NCBI GenBank assembly: GCA_048938295.1
Contig: JBHLMI010000050.1
Span: 1-8,203 of the forward strand
Source of the DNA: Promethearchaeota archaeon
GTDB taxonomy: Archaea; Asgardarchaeota; Hermodarchaeia; Hermodarchaeales; Hermodarchaeaceae
DNA: 8,203 bases
Direction: 5' to 3'
The position numbers and the translations under genes were made by a program. Shown in pieces: positions 1 to 7,989 of this stretch. The first letter of the stretch is position 1. Each line of letters opens with the position of its first letter. Under the pieces are notes generated by a model. It did no database searches and had not been told where the DNA came from. It worked only from the letters and a program-made list of their open reading frames with translations.

Positions 1-357
1 ACCACCTTCACCATCAAAGGCGGACGCGGCGTCGGCGTCCTCGAAGCCCCCCGCGGCCTCCTCATCCACGACTACACTGCAAACGCGAATGGAATACTCA
101 CGAACGTCAACCTCATCGTCAGCACCGTCGGCAACAACCCCAGCATGGACCAAGGCGTCCAACACCTCGCCCAACGTCATATAAAGAATGGTCGAATTAA
201 TCAACAAATCATCAATAGTATCGAGATGGTCGTCCGCTGTTTCGACCCATGTTTATCCTGTGCCGTTCATGCGGTGAATGGTCACATGGCCATGCGGATC
301 AAAGTGCTGAATCATCTCGGTGAAACCACGCAAGTGATCCAGAATTTCGATAAGTAG
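1..357 (+). CDS. mvhA: [NiFe]-hydrogenase large subunit, group 3c (MvhA/VhuA-like), 3' part only; gene begins upstream of the window
   Basis: Frame +1 is open from base 1: TTFTIKGGRGVGVLEAPRGLLIHDYTANANGILTNVNLIVSTVGNNPSMDQGVQHLAQRHIKNGRINQQIINSIEMVVRCFDPCLSCAVHAVNGHMAMRIKVLNHLGETTQVIQNFDK*. It has the EAPRG motif, the L2 metal-binding motif DPCLSCAVH (244-270) and a C-terminal extension after the His. The NNPxM..G.Q..AQ..IK and EMV.R..DPCLSC.H pattern matches MvhA as I recall it. The supplied 145..357 ORF is only the distal part. Confidence 0.9.
   Translation, partial: TTFTIKGGRGVGVLEAPRGLLIHDYTANANGILTNVNLIVSTVGNNPSMDQGVQHLAQRHIKNGRINQQIINSIEMVVRCFDPCLSCAVHAVNGHMAMRIKVLNHLGETTQVIQNFDK
271..324 (+). 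repeat. Copy 1 of a diverged 54-nt direct repeat, encoding the start of the hydrogenase C-terminal extension (AVNGHMAMRIKVLNHLGE)
   Basis: gcggtgaatggtcacatggccatgcggatcaaagtgctgaatcatctcggtgaa aligns without gaps to 2465-2518 at 42/54 nt (hand alignment). Confidence 0.85.
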
Positions 358-361
358 CTGC

Positions 362-2272
362 TTATTTGTTGGCTTGCGTCGCAAGCCAGTTCTTCACCTT
401 TTTTCGTTTTGGGTTGGATGAGGGTAAAGCGATTTGTGCCCACCGTAGAGCGTCTGATTCTTCGAGTGTGTACATTTCCCATATCATCGATGTGCGATTG
501 TTTTGCTGTTGATGAATTTCTTTGGGCGTTTTATGCATGTTTATGCCCAGACTGGCGGTTAGTGCAAATTCATCTTCTAGAAGTCGACAGAGGTTCTCTT
601 CGATGATTTTACGAAGGTGTCTTGCTGCCAATTTAGTTTGTGGGTCCTTGGAATTCTCAAGGGCTTTGACTTTTCCATAAACGAGGATGGTTTCTTCTCG
701 TGGTGGTTCATCACGGATTTGCTGGACACGTTTTTCACCGTGAAATTTGATAAATTGATGGATTTCCGGGGGAATTTTTGATTTGAAGTCATAATTTTCA
801 GCTTTTGGTCCTGCATCTAGAACTTTGGCACGTTTAATTCCGAATTTTGCTCTTCCGTGTGTATCAAAATAGCCATCTTCGGGAATTACTTCTGACAGGT
901 AAGCACATCTGACCTTTTCCGAACCTTTTCGAACCAATTCTGGTAATCTGAAATTGGGGCTTAGATGCTTGTCGCCTGCAGGTACGCCATATTGTTCGAG
1001 AAGCCTTCCAATCGTTACTGGCATGTTCAGGCGATGGGCACTAGGAATTTTATCCTCAGTAATGTAGACATCCCCAAAGGCTTTCATCAGGTTCTTTACA
1101 TAAGCGCGTCGCTCAGCATCCTTTTCGATATATGTAAAATACTTCTTTTCATGGTGGATGTGTCCATCGCTCAAGGCAAGCCCCAAAAGACGTGAAATAA
1201 CTGTAACACGCTCTTCACCCTCCAGAAAAATTGGATTTTGAATACCTCCAACATCAAATCCATGTGCATCGCGTCCGAGGCGTGTGATGAAGAGTTGGAT
1301 ATCTTTGAACTCGCGTCCTGTGGTGTCGAGAAGTAGTTGGAGGGTTTCTCCAGTGAGGTAGAGGCGATGTTTGCAATAATCACCTAGATGTGATTTGCTA
1401 TGAGATAATTCACCTTTATGATCGGTGAGTTGGAGGGTGAGGCGGCTGAGTCCGATTGTGGTGGTGTTGAGGTGGCGTTTGGCGTCGTTGATGAGGAGGG
1501 ATTTGAGGTCGGTTGTGTCGAAGTAGAAGTATTCGTGTTTGAGGAGGGTGAGCCAGGCTTCTGGTTTAGTACGGTGGTGGTAGAGGTAGAGGGTGTGGTT
1601 GAAGATGCCGATTCGTATTCTTGTGTGGGGTTGATGGGTAAGGTTGATGTGTTGGTTGAGGACGTTTTCGACTTCTTCGTGGTGGTGTTCGAGGGATTTG
1701 GCGATGGTGCGGGTCCAGCGGGGTCCGGATTCGTGGTAGGGTTTGAGGTCGGCGATGAGGAGGCGTTTGAATTCGATCTTGTGATATATGGTTTCGATTG
1801 CTGCTGCGAGGGCTTCGGGTGTGTGGGGTTGGTCTTTGAGGTGGCGGACGGATTTGTAGATGATGCTTGAATCAATGCGGTAGGTGTGGTGTTGTTGGGG
1901 GAGTGTGGTTTCGTGCTCGAAGCGTGCTTTTTCATGGGTGATGAGGGATTCGAGAAGGCGAGGAATGTGTTCGTCACGGAGCCAATAGCTGACGACAATG
2001 TGGCTGATACCAAGGGTGTTGGCAAGTTTGTAGGTGCTGGTAGATGGGAGGGTGTGAGTGTGTTGGGCGTGTTTGAGGAGGAGGTAGCATTGGGCGTGCC
2101 AGTAGTGTTTGGGGAAGGAGGGGCGGTCGCGGAAGTAGGGGTGACGCTCTAGAAGAATGTTTAGTTGTTCAATGGTGGTTATGGTTAGGAGATTGGTCAT
2201 TGGTAGTTTGTCAGTGTTAGGTGTTGAATTTGGGTTGAAGAACTCCACAATTTGGTGTCGAATTTGGTTCAT
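362..2272 (-). CDS. Free-standing double-motif LAGLIDADG (DOD-type) homing-endonuclease-like protein with N-terminal HTH, 636 aa
   Basis: Motif 1 SRLLGLALSDGHI (~1157-1195) and motif 2 AYLSEVIPEDGYF (866-904), the latter preceded by LPELVRKGSEKVR as in intein DOD block E. Block-H-like LLEDEFALTASLGI, YGVPAGDK loop, and HTH-like STYKLANTLGISHIVVSYWLR near the N-terminus. No Hint/intein termini or flanking extein are visible; ATG directly follows an in-frame TAA. Confidence 0.85.
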   Translation of the reverse strand: MNQIRHQIVEFFNPNSTPNTDKLPMTNLLTITTIEQLNILLERHPYFRDRPSFPKHYWHAQCYLLLKHAQHTHTLPSTSTYKLANTLGISHIVVSYWLRDEHIPRLLESLITHEKARFEHETTLPQQHHTYRIDSSIIYKSVRHLKDQPHTPEALAAAIETIYHKIEFKRLLIADLKPYHESGPRWTRTIAKSLEHHHEEVENVLNQHINLTHQPHTRIRIGIFNHTLYLYHHRTKPEAWLTLLKHEYFYFDTTDLKSLLINDAKRHLNTTTIGLSRLTLQLTDHKGELSHSKSHLGDYCKHRLYLTGETLQLLLDTTGREFKDIQLFITRLGRDAHGFDVGGIQNPIFLEGEERVTVISRLLGLALSDGHIHHEKKYFTYIEKDAERRAYVKNLMKAFGDVYITEDKIPSAHRLNMPVTIGRLLEQYGVPAGDKHLSPNFRLPELVRKGSEKVRCAYLSEVIPEDGYFDTHGRAKFGIKRAKVLDAGPKAENYDFKSKIPPEIHQFIKFHGEKRVQQIRDEPPREETILVYGKVKALENSKDPQTKLAARHLRKIIEENLCRLLEDEFALTASLGINMHKTPKEIHQQQNNRTSMIWEMYTLEESDALRWAQIALPSSNPKRKKVKNWLATQANK

Positions 2273-2299
2273 TTATATGCGTTATGGTTTGGAGGCATG

Positions 2300-2416
2300 T
2301 TATGGGGTGTTGAAAAGGAGTATCATGAAGATGAGGACGTTGATGATGGACCCAATGGCGACTACAAGAACGAGGAACACTTTTTCAGCAGTGGACAGAT
2401 TCTCAAGTGGCATCAT
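2300..2416 (-). CDS. Small single-pass membrane peptide, 38 aa (MMPLENLSTAEKVFLVLVVAIGSIINVLIFMILLFNTP)
   Basis: Translated by hand; below the ORF-track cutoff. One ~23-residue hydrophobic run (VFLVLVVAIGSIINVLIFMILLF), in-frame TAG just upstream, AGGT SD-like motif before ATG, stop 27 nt ahead of the LAGLIDADG start on the same strand. Confidence 0.5.
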   Translation of the reverse strand: MMPLENLSTAEKVFLVLVVAIGSIINVLIFMILLFNTP

Positions 2417-2446
2417 GTTGACCTAGTGAATTGGCAACTAAATACT

Positions 2447-2518
2447 TGCTTGTCTGTGTTGTACGAGGCGAATGGTCACATTGCGGTGCGGGTGAAGGTG
2501 TTCAATCATCTGGGTGAG
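2447..2518 (+). pseudogene. Relic second copy of the hydrogenase large-subunit 3' end (decayed L2 motif plus C-terminal extension)
   Basis: 2465-2518 reads EANGHIAVRVKVFNHLGE versus AVNGHMAMRIKVLNHLGE at 271-324. Just upstream, tgcttgtctgtgttgtac resembles tgtttatcctgtgccgttcat (CLSCAVH) with 3 nt lost. No upstream hydrogenase sequence accompanies it. Confidence 0.75.
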
Positions 2519-2567
2519 AATATATCAAAATATTCCGCATATCGCAGGACGGGGAGGCATTATAGAG

Positions 2568-3657: not shown

Positions 3658-4410
3658 TCAGCTGCTTGGAGACTGGCTGGCAATAAGCTGTTCTATCACC
3701 TGACTATGTTCACGTTCATGTTCAACAAAACGGCGTAACACTTTGCGGAGGGTCCAGCGTTCCTGAGGGTGGCGGGTGTGTTTGGCTCGTGTAAAAGTAC
3801 GAGGAACGCCTTGTGAAAAAGCTTTGTTAAGAACATGGAACGCACAGTGGCGAACCGCTGCGAGATGGGTGAGGATAGTTTTCTCTTCGCGGTGGGGTTG
3901 AGTGTGATGGAGTAGCTGTTCGTATTCGCGTTGAAGGGCAGAACCCAATCGGGAGATGTACCATTCTTCTGCATTCGCAATATGTCGGAGGGTCTCATTT
4001 ATTGTCCATTTCGTGGGCATCAAACGGGCCTCTCGCATTGCCTCTGATACTGGCTGTACCAAGGCAAGTAAGTCCTCTCGATTCCACTCCATCAGATGAA
4101 GAAACTGGCTGAACTCAACCAGAGAAAGAGACGCCAGGTCTGAGGAAAAGAGGGCAACAGCGCCTCCGGTCTCACCGAGTTCGGGAATCTCATTGGTTTC
4201 CTCAACAACTTGAAACTCCTTAGTTTTGATTGAAGAGTGTTGTCCTTTCCGCTGAAGAAATGCGAGATGTTGGGCAATCGCTTGAGTGAGTTCGTTCAGG
4301 ACGATTTCGCGAGTTGGTCCGCGGGTAAAACAACCCGGTAATTCGATGACATGGGCATACCACCAGCGTTCTCCATGTTCAAGATTCACCGACCATACTT
4401 GCGCACTCAT
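3658..4410 (-). CDS. HicB-like N-terminal domain fused to a DinB/YfiT-family four-helix metal-binding domain, 250 aa
   Basis: N-terminus WYAHVIELPGCFTRGPTREIVLNELTQAI fits the HicB partial RNase H fold pattern. C-terminus has WTINETLRHIANAEEWY and WTLRKVLRRFVEHEREH, giving the DinB His + HxxxH triad. Confidence 0.8.
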   Translation of the reverse strand: MSAQVWSVNLEHGERWWYAHVIELPGCFTRGPTREIVLNELTQAIAQHLAFLQRKGQHSSIKTKEFQVVEETNEIPELGETGGAVALFSSDLASLSLVEFSQFLHLMEWNREDLLALVQPVSEAMREARLMPTKWTINETLRHIANAEEWYISRLGSALQREYEQLLHHTQPHREEKTILTHLAAVRHCAFHVLNKAFSQGVPRTFTRAKHTRHPQERWTLRKVLRRFVEHEREHSQVIEQLIASQSPSS

Positions 4411-4692: not shown

Positions 4693-7600
4693 ATGGTTTC
4701 AATGCCGGTTCGAAGTAGTTGGGTTAAATCTACGTGGTTAGTGGTATTTCTGGTTCTTGTGTTAGGTGGTCCGTTTCTTGTGTATTCGGGGCCGCCTTTG
4801 GAAACGATGGGTGTCGGGCTACCTTCTGAGGTGGTTCCTTCGCCTTCTCAACCTATTTCTGCTGAAGACTCGGTGCGACAAGGTGGTGGAGGGGTGTCAG
4901 TTGTTGCTCCAGCTCCTTCGATTCCCGTGTTTGACGGTGATGGTGCCAATCTCACGGCGACACCTTATATCGAGCAACAAGGTTCGGCTTATGTCACAAC
5001 GGGAGTTTGGGGTGACTCTCCATATGTAAAGGTTGACACGAATAACGATACGATTACCAGCGCACAACCTTCTGAGGGAACCATTGGACATATGGCCTGT
5101 TCGATTGACAATGTTTACGGGTATAATGAACATATAGGGCTGGTTCCCAATGGGGATTTCGAGGTCTGGCCTTTCAGCGACATTTTCCCATATGGTGGTG
5201 ATTGGGACACACAAGTAGCAGGTTCTAATGATCCCTTCTGCGAGTTCCTCTGGATTCCTCCAGCTGTTACGCCTGGGGTTCTGGTTATGCAAGTCCAACC
5301 CAATTACTTGAATGTGTTACCGCGTACGTGTGTCGGTGAAATGAGTGTCACTGCACACACTAACGTTTATCTCAACCCCGGAGATTATGTGCGAGCGTTC
5401 CTTCATTTCGAAGTTGATGTCCTTATTACAGTGTTACCGTTCACCCATACAGACGATACTCATATTCGAGTCTATATGGATGACGATATTGTGTGGTCAC
5501 ACTCATATGGTCAAAGAACGGTGGATCCTCTCGAGTATCCGGGTGGTCGGACATGGGATTACAGTTATTATGTCTACGCTGATGTCACAGACCAAATTGG
5601 TTCCGGTGGTACATATGAAATTAAACTCTACTTGATATCTGATACAGTACTTTCAACCCCATCATTTAGTTTTGTTCAAGTAATGTGGCAGGATGTGAAA
5701 CTTTTTGTTACGGAACAAGTTCCTGCCCCTCCCACTGATGTGTATATCGAGGATTTGGATACGAATGAAAGATTCTATTTCGATTCTCAAGGGTTTGCAG
5801 AGCTTTATACGACAGCTACAATGTGGGAGTTCGGACCGCACCCCCACTATTATTTTGATGCTAACTGGACGGTGTCCGCAACTCTAAACGAATTAAAGAA
5901 TATGACGACACGGTTTTCGACGACCGTTGATGCATTAGATGTCATCTGGGATGTGACTTCTCCGCCTGCCATTACGACAATCGAACCTGGATGGGTATAC
6001 TCGCGATATGAGGCTGCTATCCCCTTAGATTGGAACTACAATCAAAGTGAAGCAGGGATAGGGGGTCATTGGAAGGAGACCTTCCATATCTTGAGCTCCT
6101 ATACGGCTGGGTGGCATCAATTCCTCGAACCAAATACTGCGGTTGACAGCATCAATGTTATGTTGCAGAATTACACGATGATTATCCGAAGTCCATGCGT
6201 TCATTTCATGCAGGGCGAGCAGTATGCGGTTAACGTTTCCGGGATCATGGGAAGCTATTATTTGGACGTATACAATCCAATCGCCTACCATGAGAGTGGA
6301 AATGGTTGGATATCTGAGCACGATATGTGGACTAATAATAACACCGGTCAGGTATTTTCGCTTTCTCCCAATGCACCTTTAGGGAATTACATGGTTGTGG
6401 TCAAATGTCTTGGTCCTACTCCGCTGAACCAAGTTGGCTACTCTTCAGCGATATTCACTGTATCTGAGTACCATATAGCTAGCTTTCAATCCGAAATTAC
6501 TTCCGAAGGCAATGTAATAGTGTCAGGGCAACTGGGTTCTGCTGACTCTGGTGATTATACTGTTTATTGTGTTCGAGCAGTGTTGCAAAGCCCCGCAATG
6601 GATGGGCGCTTTGACGAAGTCATTGGAGATATGCGTCTACAGGATTGGTATCAAACCGATTGTCTGATATCAGTAACAGGAGAGCCCATCGATATTCACT
6701 TCACGGTGAACAATACCGGGGTTCACAAAGAAAACGTAGCTGTTACCCTTCGCTTTCTCAGTTTGGGAAGTCGTTCCTATTTGCTCTTTGAGAAGACCGC
6801 TCTTGTTTCAGTGTGGGAAACCAATCAGCTCCAGGAATTCAACTGGCCCAATTTATGGATAGGCCCGGTAGGAAACAATACTATGATGCGGCGAGGCTTC
6901 TATTTCATGGAGCTGGAAATTAACGGAAATCGCCTGGGCTTGCATCGCGGTGCAATTGGGTCTTATCTTGCCGTTACAGATTCGCCTTCCATGATTGGTC
7001 GGGTTCCAAATTACCGTTCAATTCCTGTTAGCTATCCTGATTTTACCACAGAATTTGTACGGTTCTATGGTGAACTTGCGATGCCTGTTACCAATTATTT
7101 CCTTGTAACAGTGACAGATGTGAATCATATAACCGCTGATAGTGTTCCTGTGAGTAGCGAAATCTTGAAGCTGCATACGAGTCTGCATCAACCCTACCTT
7201 GTTGACCATTCTTACGGCAATTACACCAGTATACATCCGAATGGGTCTCTTACTGCTGAGGCATGGATGTGGAGCGAATCTCCTTGGCTAACCGATTATA
7301 ACTTTTCAAATCATGAGTACTCACTAGATTATTACGTCAACTGGAGTACCGAGTTTGAATACTGGGGTTCTGCCCCCATCAACAACTGGGCTACACCTCG
7401 TGATCGTGATTTTCATGGAATAAGTCGCCTAATGATCACCGATTCTAGTGGTCATCCTCCCGGCTCTTATCCGCTTCTCATCAGATACCAAGGCGACACG
7501 TTTACTCATGCCTGTAATATTACGGGCACAGTTGAATACGCCTTTACAACCATTTCACCACCGGTCTCTGGCCCAGGGACGAATGCAGGTTTTGGTGGAC

Positions 7601-7989
7601 AAGGAATACTAATGGCCCGTTTGTGGGGCTGGACCTGTGTGATGGACGTTACATGGACTTATCCCAATCTAAGGCCAATTCCTGGGAAAGAATTAATCTT
7701 TGCCATCTTCACGGGTGTCAATTGGCAAGTTGTTGGCGTGGGCGTTACGGATTCTGATGGATGGGCACGAATACCTTATTCCGCAAGCTTTGTTATAGGC
7801 ACTCATCAAGTTCAAGTGATTTTCGAAGGCTCTGGTTTTCTTGCGGGATCGTTAGGTGTGTACAATATTACAATTGCTCCAAGTGTTCTTTTTGTGGGGA
7901 TTATTGCGCCTATTATCATTGTTCCAGTTGTGATCTCTGCTCTTGTCATTCGAAAAATCCGGAAAGGGCGCGTAGAGGGAGGTGAATGA
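4693..7989 (+). CDS. Large secreted, C-terminally membrane-anchored beta-sandwich/Ig-like cell-surface glycoprotein, 1098 aa
   Basis: N-terminal signal-like hydrophobic segment (WLVVFLVLVLGGPFLV). CBM-like LVPNGDFE motif. Ig-like strand patterns (APLGNYMVVVK, PPGSYPLLIRY, GVTDSDGWARIPY...GTHQVQVIFEG). About 16 N-x-S/T sequons by hand count. C-terminal TM helix (VLFVGIIAPIIIVPVVISALVI) followed by the basic tail RKIRKGR. Confidence 0.88.
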   Translation: MVSMPVRSSWVKSTWLVVFLVLVLGGPFLVYSGPPLETMGVGLPSEVVPSPSQPISAEDSVRQGGGGVSVVAPAPSIPVFDGDGANLTATPYIEQQGSAYVTTGVWGDSPYVKVDTNNDTITSAQPSEGTIGHMACSIDNVYGYNEHIGLVPNGDFEVWPFSDIFPYGGDWDTQVAGSNDPFCEFLWIPPAVTPGVLVMQVQPNYLNVLPRTCVGEMSVTAHTNVYLNPGDYVRAFLHFEVDVLITVLPFTHTDDTHIRVYMDDDIVWSHSYGQRTVDPLEYPGGRTWDYSYYVYADVTDQIGSGGTYEIKLYLISDTVLSTPSFSFVQVMWQDVKLFVTEQVPAPPTDVYIEDLDTNERFYFDSQGFAELYTTATMWEFGPHPHYYFDANWTVSATLNELKNMTTRFSTTVDALDVIWDVTSPPAITTIEPGWVYSRYEAAIPLDWNYNQSEAGIGGHWKETFHILSSYTAGWHQFLEPNTAVDSINVMLQNYTMIIRSPCVHFMQGEQYAVNVSGIMGSYYLDVYNPIAYHESGNGWISEHDMWTNNNTGQVFSLSPNAPLGNYMVVVKCLGPTPLNQVGYSSAIFTVSEYHIASFQSEITSEGNVIVSGQLGSADSGDYTVYCVRAVLQSPAMDGRFDEVIGDMRLQDWYQTDCLISVTGEPIDIHFTVNNTGVHKENVAVTLRFLSLGSRSYLLFEKTALVSVWETNQLQEFNWPNLWIGPVGNNTMMRRGFYFMELEINGNRLGLHRGAIGSYLAVTDSPSMIGRVPNYRSIPVSYPDFTTEFVRFYGELAMPVTNYFLVTVTDVNHITADSVPVSSEILKLHTSLHQPYLVDHSYGNYTSIHPNGSLTAEAWMWSESPWLTDYNFSNHEYSLDYYVNWSTEFEYWGSAPINNWATPRDRDFHGISRLMITDSSGHPPGSYPLLIRYQGDTFTHACNITGTVEYAFTTISPPVSGPGTNAGFGGQGILMARLWGWTCVMDVTWTYPNLRPIPGKELIFAIFTGVNWQVVGVGVTDSDGWARIPYSASFVIGTHQVQVIFEGSGFLAGSLGVYNITIAPSVLFVGIIAPIIIVPVVISALVIRKIRKGRVEGGE

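Follow-up and report, generated by a model that had tools for sequence, protein, structure and literature searches.

A candidate gene-end-swapping homing endonuclease system behind a hydrogenase gene in Asgard archaea

What places a second copy of a hydrogenase gene's 3′ end on the far side of a free-standing gene that runs in the opposite direction? The question is raised by a stretch of DNA of 8,203 nucleotides (nt) from a Promethearchaeota archaeon (contig JBHLMI010000050.1 of assembly GCA_048938295.1), here called the window, which is the entire contig C37 of a 66-contig, 2.5-Mb metagenome-assembled genome (MAG). The window opens within mvhA, which codes for the large subunit of a [NiFe] hydrogenase, and continues with a gene for a LAGLIDADG protein and a second, degenerate mvhA tail (Table 1). 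We estimate a probability of about 0.72 that it displays the newest layer of a gene-end-swapping homing endonuclease system. Below, the window locus is also designated WIN, loci from databases and metagenomes carry L numbers, and genomes of the phylum set carry G numbers.

The 54 nt that directly follow the histidine codon of the L2 motif (271-324) recur without gaps at 2465-2518, and 42 of the 54 positions match. The two copies differ at three first, two second and seven third codon positions, encode 12 identical residues of 18, and include four codons that differ only synonymously. These values had been reported in a reading made from the DNA letters alone (hereafter the original prediction) and all of them hold. 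A repeat search returned the pair as 51 nt at 80% identity with a spacing of 2194. We also searched the genome with two nhmmer profiles, one built from four true mvhA tails and a second built from 34 tails. The four-tail profile gave two significant matches in the 2.5-Mb genome, at 232-356 (E 3e-36) and 2443-2538 (E 1.8e-10), and therefore the repeat is not a product of chance. Tail 2 scores E 6e-17 with the 34-tail profile (2448-2554), and tail 1 was also matched by nhmmer at 248-382 (E 5e-35).

The homology is longer than originally proposed. It begins 5′ of the histidine codon, at the P/C codons of DPCLSC, where tail 2 has a 3-nt deletion, and it extends beyond the HLGE codons, where tail 2 is decayed and out of frame. 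Tail 1 is functional and supplies a 28-residue C-terminal extension with its stop codon at 355-357. Tail 2 retains the C-L-S codons and an intact core (2465-2518), and loses the frame after HLGE. It is a decaying relic and not the intact second hydrogenase allele that the original prediction had described. When the 54-nt cores are compared with those of other tails, identity ranges from 56 to 81% for tail 2 and reaches 87% for tail 1. Several tails, tail 1 included, share 76-81% of the core with tail 2, and a core of this length is too short to place the naive alleles.

Tail 2 had also been taken for the old tail displaced by the neighboring endonuclease gene. It is probably an older relic, with the tail displaced by this gene copy since lost, because a 38-codon open reading frame (ORF) intervenes and the same pair of ORF and relic sits deep within the array of tails in genome G095. 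Moreover, at homologous loci it is another relic that adjoins the endonuclease promoter, and that one has no counterpart in the window. The ORF has a match beside the corresponding relic of that array (L059#3; tblastn, 59% identity, E 1.7e-10), and possibly encodes a real small membrane protein from an old cassette.

It is very improbable that the repeat is the remnant of a local tandem duplication or a chimera assembled at a contig end. The contig is only 8.2 kb long, starts inside mvhA and joins its neighbor by a 77-nt overlap alone, and other MAGs also have contigs that break in this region. Nevertheless, the same architecture is present in independent NCBI, JGI, ENA and Logan assemblies, and the relics described below differ from one another by 20-40% and have distinct flanks.

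Table 1. Features of the window at the end of mvhA
Feature	Position	Strand	Basis and remarks
mvhA 3′ part, 118 codons and TAG	1-357	+	Pfam NiFeSe_Hases, E 3.6e-10; remainder on contig C51
L2 motif DPCLSCAVH codons	244-270	+	Translation; Ni-Fe ligand cysteines and histidine of the maturation cut
Repeat copy 1: functional tail and ~35 nt conserved after the stop	247-393	+	nhmmer, alignment
Endonuclease gene, 636-aa open frame	362-2272	-	ORF list; convergent with mvhA
Two-motif LAGLIDADG nuclease domain, residues ~345-636	362-1240	-	AlphaFold2, Foldseek
Palindrome, 9-bp arms	370-388		Sequence check; within the last endonuclease codons (Trp629 codon)
N-terminal region of ~320 residues, helix-turn-helix-like modules	1241-2200	-	Model, pLDDT 91
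TATA-like box (2273-2279) and right end of the endonuclease unit	2273-2290	-	Five-locus alignment
Small hydrophobic ORF, 38 aa	2300-2416	-	Translation; between endonuclease unit and tail 2
Tail 2, decaying mvhA tail relic	2443-2554	+	nhmmer, register alignment, translation

The endonuclease gene and its family

The gene between the two tails is single-copy in this genome, and its stop codon lies 4 nt from that of mvhA. Its true start is probably Met25 (position 2200), giving a protein of 612 residues, because several homologues start at that position, residues 1-26 are disordered (pLDDT, the predicted local distance difference test score, below 50 in the AlphaFold2 model), and the TATA-like box abuts the first ATG. 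This box is the putative promoter of the gene, and homology among WIN, L002, L003, L004 and L063 stops about 10 nt past it. We found 28 full-length homologues. Differences from the copy in L003 fall 154, 103 and 290 times on first, second and third codon positions, consistent with purifying selection on the encoded protein.

Pfam searches with the whole ORF and with its halves gave nothing above threshold. The AlphaFold2 model, computed with 16 homologues in the alignment, has a pLDDT of 89 and a predicted template modeling (TM) score of 0.82. When its C-terminal ~290 residues were compared with the PDB by Foldseek, the matches included PI-SceI (E 4.9e-6), I-Tsp061I and I-DmoI (target TM 0.63-0.71), and almost all of the best 50 PDB matches are LAGLIDADG enzymes. 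The predicted fold is that of the LAGLIDADG family, with two alpha-beta-beta-alpha-beta-beta-alpha half-domains. Motif 1, LLGLALSDGH, places a helix (352-367) before SDG and contains Asp369 (1166-1168), and in motif 2, YLSEVIPEDGY, a helix (452-465) ends in PEDG with Glu465 and Asp466 (875-880). Both D369 and E465 are invariant in 17 aligned sequences, and position 466 is D or E. Thus, the assignment of this ORF to the LAGLIDADG fold in the original prediction stands. On the structural model, the 612- to 636-residue product is a free-standing LAGLIDADG homing endonuclease of predicted activity that carries an N-terminal DNA-binding extension of the helix-turn-helix (HTH) type. For the N-terminal 320 residues, a structural search gave only weak matches to XRE-type HTH proteins (Z 4.0-4.5) and no fold was assigned; Pfam matches of this region to P22_Cro and DUF7239 are likewise weak.

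The DNA for the N-terminal half is compositionally unusual. At 1260-2340, the coding strand has a GC skew of -0.56 (C over G), compared with a genome mean of -0.01, and only 0.08% of the long ORFs in the genome have a skew below -0.4. The skew is shared by the homologues in L002-L006 (-0.54 to -0.61) and not by the uvrB-type member L007, and it yields long spurious ORFs in the other frames.

The homologues were searched for the mvhA-adjacent context, as the original prediction had suggested. All homologues that reach 58% identity and lie on long enough contigs (WIN, L002, L003, L004 and L063, the latter four being 58-71% identical to the window protein) are convergent with mvhA, and a homologue of 41% identity (L062) also lies tail-to-tail with this gene. 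Members of a sister clade of ~42% identity lie tail-to-tail with a gene for a 401-residue large subunit of a group-4 [NiFe] hydrogenase, as seen in L005, L006 and L008, in six same-genus genomes and in four metagenome contigs. In a maximum-likelihood tree, the proteins associated with mvhA and with the group-4 gene form separate, strongly supported sister clades. The association with gene ends is therefore clade-specific, and the window endonuclease belongs to a lineage specific for the mvhA 3′ end.

More distant members do not adjoin hydrogenase genes. Around homologues of ~30% identity, no flanking duplications were found within 1.5 kb on either side. With 6-kb flanks, two duplicated gene ends came to light. 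In L096, an endonuclease remnant lies between the gene for methylenetetrahydrofolate reductase (MTHFR) and a 69%-identical copy of the last 74 residues of MTHFR, and in L007 uvrB is separated by an intact member from a displaced fragment of its own 5′ end (~100 residues). The same search gave short direct repeats in L070 (5537-5623/2778-2864) and L072 (7916-7990/796-870), for which the host gene is unassigned. Of 400 genomes of the phylum, 65 encode members of this protein family; nearly all of these genomes belong to two taxonomic families, and a genome often holds several copies. Distant members from the second archaeal family (L032 1-3276 and L023 1414-4614) are 1,000-1,100 residues long, carry several extra HTH domains before the LAGLIDADG part, and are not inteins.

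WhiA is among the structural matches (E 5.8e-4), shares both the LAGLIDADG scaffold and an HTH domain with the window protein, and lacks the catalytic acids. This raises the idea that the family is a domesticated, WhiA-like regulator of hydrogenase expression, and that the tail copies stem from an unrelated duplication followed by decay. Conservation beside hydrogenase genes under purifying selection would agree with such a role. We nonetheless consider it improbable. Both catalytic acids are kept in all 17 aligned members, and the HTH part is N-terminal, which also sets the protein apart from WhiA. Furthermore, the gene is patchily distributed and leaves pseudogene remnants, being absent, truncated or a remnant at the same site in same-genus genomes. 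Copy number varies per genome, and the members at MTHFR and uvrB are accompanied by duplicated ends of those genes.

Tail arrays and cassettes

Copies of the mvhA tail accumulate downstream of mvhA in related loci. We counted five relics in L002, four in L003, three each in L004 and L063, three in G106, four in G101, two in G099, six in G095 and one in G094, all on the mvhA strand. In G108, from a sister genus, a single tail is followed by housekeeping genes with no relics, and this mvhA is a naive locus. Most relics run from the P-C-L codons of DPCLSC to ~35 nt beyond the stop codon. In 10 loci, the relics start within the P-C-L codons or, beside the endonuclease unit, at the A-V-H codons. 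Relics of the group-4 tail start at the same motif position, (C)FSC. The group-4 locus of the present genome, on contig C2, carries an array of its own tail, in which no endonuclease remnants were detected at E < 0.1.

Elsewhere, the missing gene has left traces. The strand opposite to mvhA, right after some tails that lack the gene, encodes the C-terminus of the family (…PSSNPKRKKVxDWL…). Such remnants follow relic 2 of L003, relic 4 of L059, relic 4 of L056 and the true tails of G094 and G106, and tblastn gave significant E values (3e-5 to 8e-6) for three of these. In G095, a 5′-truncated endonuclease copy lies directly after the true tail. At the promoter side, a relic that starts at the (A)VH codons directly follows the end of the unit, ~10 nt past the TATA-like box, in L004 and L063. 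The remnants and these promoter-adjacent relics together define a unit that comprises the L2 codons, a new tail, its 3′ flank, and the endonuclease gene up to its promoter. The L2 codons would be both the target of the tail-replacing elements and the place of their junctions. In L003 and L002, the relic beside the endonuclease promoter is truncated, and this variation suggests that the right junction is not defined by homology or erodes rapidly.

The state of the gene differs from locus to locus. It is intact in five mvhA loci, truncated in G095, represented only by remnants in G094, cassette 3 of L003 and cassette 5 of L059, and absent from G101, G099, G106 and G108. None of the five same-genus genomes in which the region is assembled has an intact copy downstream of mvhA. 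Thus, the gene is polymorphic for presence and absence at one conserved site, where degenerate copies also occur, as expected of a homing cycle. The original prediction would have counted relatives with several tails and no LAGLIDADG gene against its model. Such relatives do exist, and they do not refute the model because the endonuclease remnants found there point to loss of the gene after invasion. The convergent homologues, the starts of the relics and the remnants behind tails bear out its proposal that the endonuclease arrives together with a replacement tail at DPCxxCxxH.

The DNA between relics carries intact genes, for example for an Arf-like GTPase, membrane proteins and an acetyltransferase, and most of the differences in these cargo genes fall on third codon positions. 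One cassette of four genes (flavin reductase, methyltransferase, ArsR and nitroreductase) occupies position 3 of the array in L003, position 1 in G094 and position 5 in G101, and the four-gene and GTPase cassettes occur in opposite order in L003 and G101. This distribution needs more than differential loss. It suggests repeated import of units from other genomes, in which the tails would serve as regions of homology.

The tail coding sequence at 298-351 is itself an imperfect inverted repeat of 18 pairs that is kept in true tails and relics. In the tails, 79% of cells are paired, versus 34-44% in slid controls. Covariation is not above that of shuffles (204/500), and RNAalifold found no consensus structure for the tails. 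The repeat may bind a protein, form a hairpin at the 3′ end of the mRNA, or be coincidental. The palindrome listed in Table 1 begins 13 nt past the mvhA stop codon, and sequence akin to it is present after many tails without an endonuclease gene.

An inverted repeat that is so conserved is one of several features expected if the tails were attachment sites of another enzyme, in the manner of integrons, or substrates of plain homologous recombination of the Campbell type, with the LAGLIDADG gene as cargo or as a stimulator of recombination. Most cassettes hold non-endonuclease genes, which lie in both orientations, and they are found at varying positions and in varying orders. Arrays also persist in genomes with no intact endonuclease at the locus. 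This alternative is unlikely, although it is the one that we take most seriously. No recombinase family was found among the called array genes, a negative result that comes without a systematic search and with many cassette ORFs that have no Pfam match. Endonuclease remnants lie exactly at the tail-proximal end of several gene-less cassettes. Moreover, the unrelated tails of the group 3c and group 4 genes share only the junction position and the endonuclease family, and the pairing of the inverted repeat is not backed by excess covariation.

Proposed mechanism and known systems

In the homing system that we favor, the enzyme would cut naive mvhA alleles within the DNA that encodes the invariant DPCxxCxxH motif. 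Repair from an invaded allele would then copy in the replacement tail, the ~35 nt that flank it on the 3′ side, and the endonuclease gene, which runs toward mvhA and brings its own promoter. The hydrogenase would remain intact, and the old tail would be shifted downstream. During maturation of [NiFe] hydrogenases, a C-terminal extension is removed after the histidine by a maturation protease, and the replacement tail would consist mostly of this cleavable extension. Exchanging it would thus cost the host little, whereas few codons of the gene are as highly conserved as the putative target. Repeated invasions, loss of endonuclease genes and recombination between homologous tails might then build the arrays of relics and cargo. 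The array in the window would be a short one, composed of the functional tail 1, the intact endonuclease gene, the small membrane-protein ORF and one older relic.

The repeat, the fold, the conserved catalytic residues, the clade-specific placement at gene ends, the arrays, the remnants and the reshuffled cassettes are observations, whereas cleavage, its position, the repair pathway and the current activity of the enzyme are inferences. Several points weigh against the homing reading. The protein is unrecognized by Pfam, the best match being LAGLIDADG_3 with E 0.13 and 13 bits against a cut-off of 22.5. The intact mvhA gene still carries the target-like DPCLSCAVH, and a comparison of tails with and without a linked endonuclease gene turned up nothing consistent around this motif that would explain self-immunity. 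In the window, no relic adjoins the endonuclease promoter, and the tail displaced by this copy is missing. Many cassettes hold intact non-endonuclease genes whose arrival is unexplained by a simple homing model. The tail-replacing homing model of the original prediction is largely supported, except in two parts: tail 2 is probably not the tail displaced by this gene copy, and the recoding of the new tail for immunity to cleavage is unsupported.

To our knowledge, homing endonucleases that carry a replacement gene end are known essentially from fungal mitochondria. A literature search on hydrogenases and homing endonucleases in Asgard archaea found nothing relevant. By analogy, the closest precedent is the group of mobile ORFs (mORFs) of fungal mitochondria. 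These elements carry a foreign C-terminus into atp6 of Allomyces macrogynus and into atp6, atp9, cox2 and nad3 of Glomus (PMC3630166). The native C-terminus is left downstream, and mORFs are thought to home by cutting ORF-less alleles (PMC3630166). The shared order is gene body, inserted C-terminus, LAGLIDADG ORF (in mORFs also GIY-YIG) and displaced native C-terminus. The window has this order, with tail 1 (271-357), the endonuclease ORF (362-2272) and the relic (2443-2554) following one another, and so do L002-L004 and L063. The differences are also substantial. The mORF endonuclease lies on the host strand and often in phase, whereas the window ORF is antisense and convergent and has its own TATA-like box. 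Unlike mORFs, the present system resides in an archaeal chromosome rather than an organelle, adds an HTH-type N-terminal extension of ~320 residues, and has as its putative target the metal-ligand and maturation motif of [NiFe] hydrogenases. It also shows serial invasions, with arrays of up to six relics and non-endonuclease cargo, and one relative (at uvrB) replaces a 5′ end.

Other systems resemble parts of this arrangement. The Seg and Mob proteins of phage T4 are free-standing endonucleases encoded beside a conserved target gene, and they carry out intronless homing, spreading by break repair with co-conversion of flanking markers. The window gene likewise adjoins its putative conserved target and is not inserted in it. 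The T4 enzymes belong to the GIY-YIG and HNH families, and they are not known to be associated with a duplicated replacement gene end or with relic arrays; the window element differs in all three respects. Integrative elements that target tRNA 3′ ends restore the gene end from their own copy and so keep the tRNA gene functional, and the resulting tRNA-fragment repeats mark old insertions and can stack in tandem. Such elements depend on a tyrosine or serine recombinase and on a short core of identity, whereas the repeats described here are ~140 nt long and 60-90% identical and are accompanied by a LAGLIDADG nuclease, and no recombinase was noticed, although none was systematically sought.

Integrons have in common with the mvhA arrays one-sided, co-oriented repeats between single genes or small gene sets, and cassettes that are shared and reordered. 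They differ in that they use IntI, whereas no recombinase family is present among the called array genes (no dedicated search was made). Integrons also recombine attC sites and not copies of a host gene tail, and the cassette genes here face either way. In the tail inverted repeat it is the sequence that is conserved, with no covariation excess, and so the repeat does not have the conserved structure of attC.

A broader proposal is that a hitherto undescribed HTH-LAGLIDADG family of Asgard archaea is, through its clade-specific members, a general swapper of gene ends (3′ for mvhA, the group-4 gene and MTHFR, and 5′ for uvrB) and that at hydrogenase genes it has given rise to an integron-like platform for gene capture. 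Under this proposal, the stacked tails would be portable recombination sites at which cassettes are gained, reordered and exchanged between genomes, and the disposable maturation peptide of the hydrogenase would be a safe harbor. We advance it tentatively and consider it somewhat less probable than its negation.

If the gene-end-swapping reading is correct, this strategy is now seen in Asgard archaeal chromosomes, in a family that no domain library names, and its target is the most conserved set of codons in [NiFe] hydrogenases. These enzymes are central to ideas on hydrogen syntrophy at the origin of eukaryotes. It would show how a peptide that is cleaved off during maturation can give a selfish nuclease a place to land without harm. 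The reading would also account for recurrent contig breaks and "orphan tails" behind hydrogenase genes in MAGs, and it points to nuclease-seeded, integrase-free gene capture and horizontal exchange of cassettes. In addition, the family would offer new meganucleases with long sites, whose natural target region is indicated by the junctions.

Host gene and neighboring genes

C37 begins with the same 77 nt with which contig C51 ends, and joining the two contigs gives an intact gene for a [NiFe] hydrogenase large subunit of 473 residues. The genes upstream of mvhA are, in order, hdrC/hdrB, three 2-oxoacid oxidoreductase genes, hdrA, mvhD and mvhG. For the 2-oxoacid oxidoreductase position, POR and TPP_enzyme_C are listed in the homologous JGI locus L002. 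Judged by this gene context, the hydrogenase is of the MvhA type (group 3c). The closest homologues of the window proteins are deposited as Hermodarchaeia, Thorarchaeota or Promethearchaeota.

Codon usage changes near the end of mvhA. In the joined gene, 20-26 of every 30 codons end in C between codons ~200 and 400, whereas usage is ordinary in the last ~60 codons; across the boundary (positions 1-180 versus 181-357), the skew moves from -0.32 to +0.04 and the GC content from 0.56 to 0.44. The drop in codon bias is common to L002 and L003, and repeated replacement of the 3′ end may be its cause. We considered the composition break at ~181 as a boundary of co-conversion. It is not decisive, as other stretches of the mvhA body are also less biased, and mvhA identity to L003 shows no step there. 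Contigs end within the last ~120 mvhA codons in the window and in MAGs G094, G099, G101, G102 and G109, and assembly is probably hampered here by the repeated tails or by differences between strains.

Two further genes of the window lie beyond tail 2. A protein of 250 residues (3658-4410, minus strand) has a weak UPF0150-like (HicB-type) N-terminus and a domain of the DinB superfamily. A protein of 1,098 residues (4693-7989) has a signal-like N-terminal segment, a membrane-anchor-like C-terminal segment and no Pfam match. Its homologue comes after the last relic in L004 and marks a conserved distal flank of the array.

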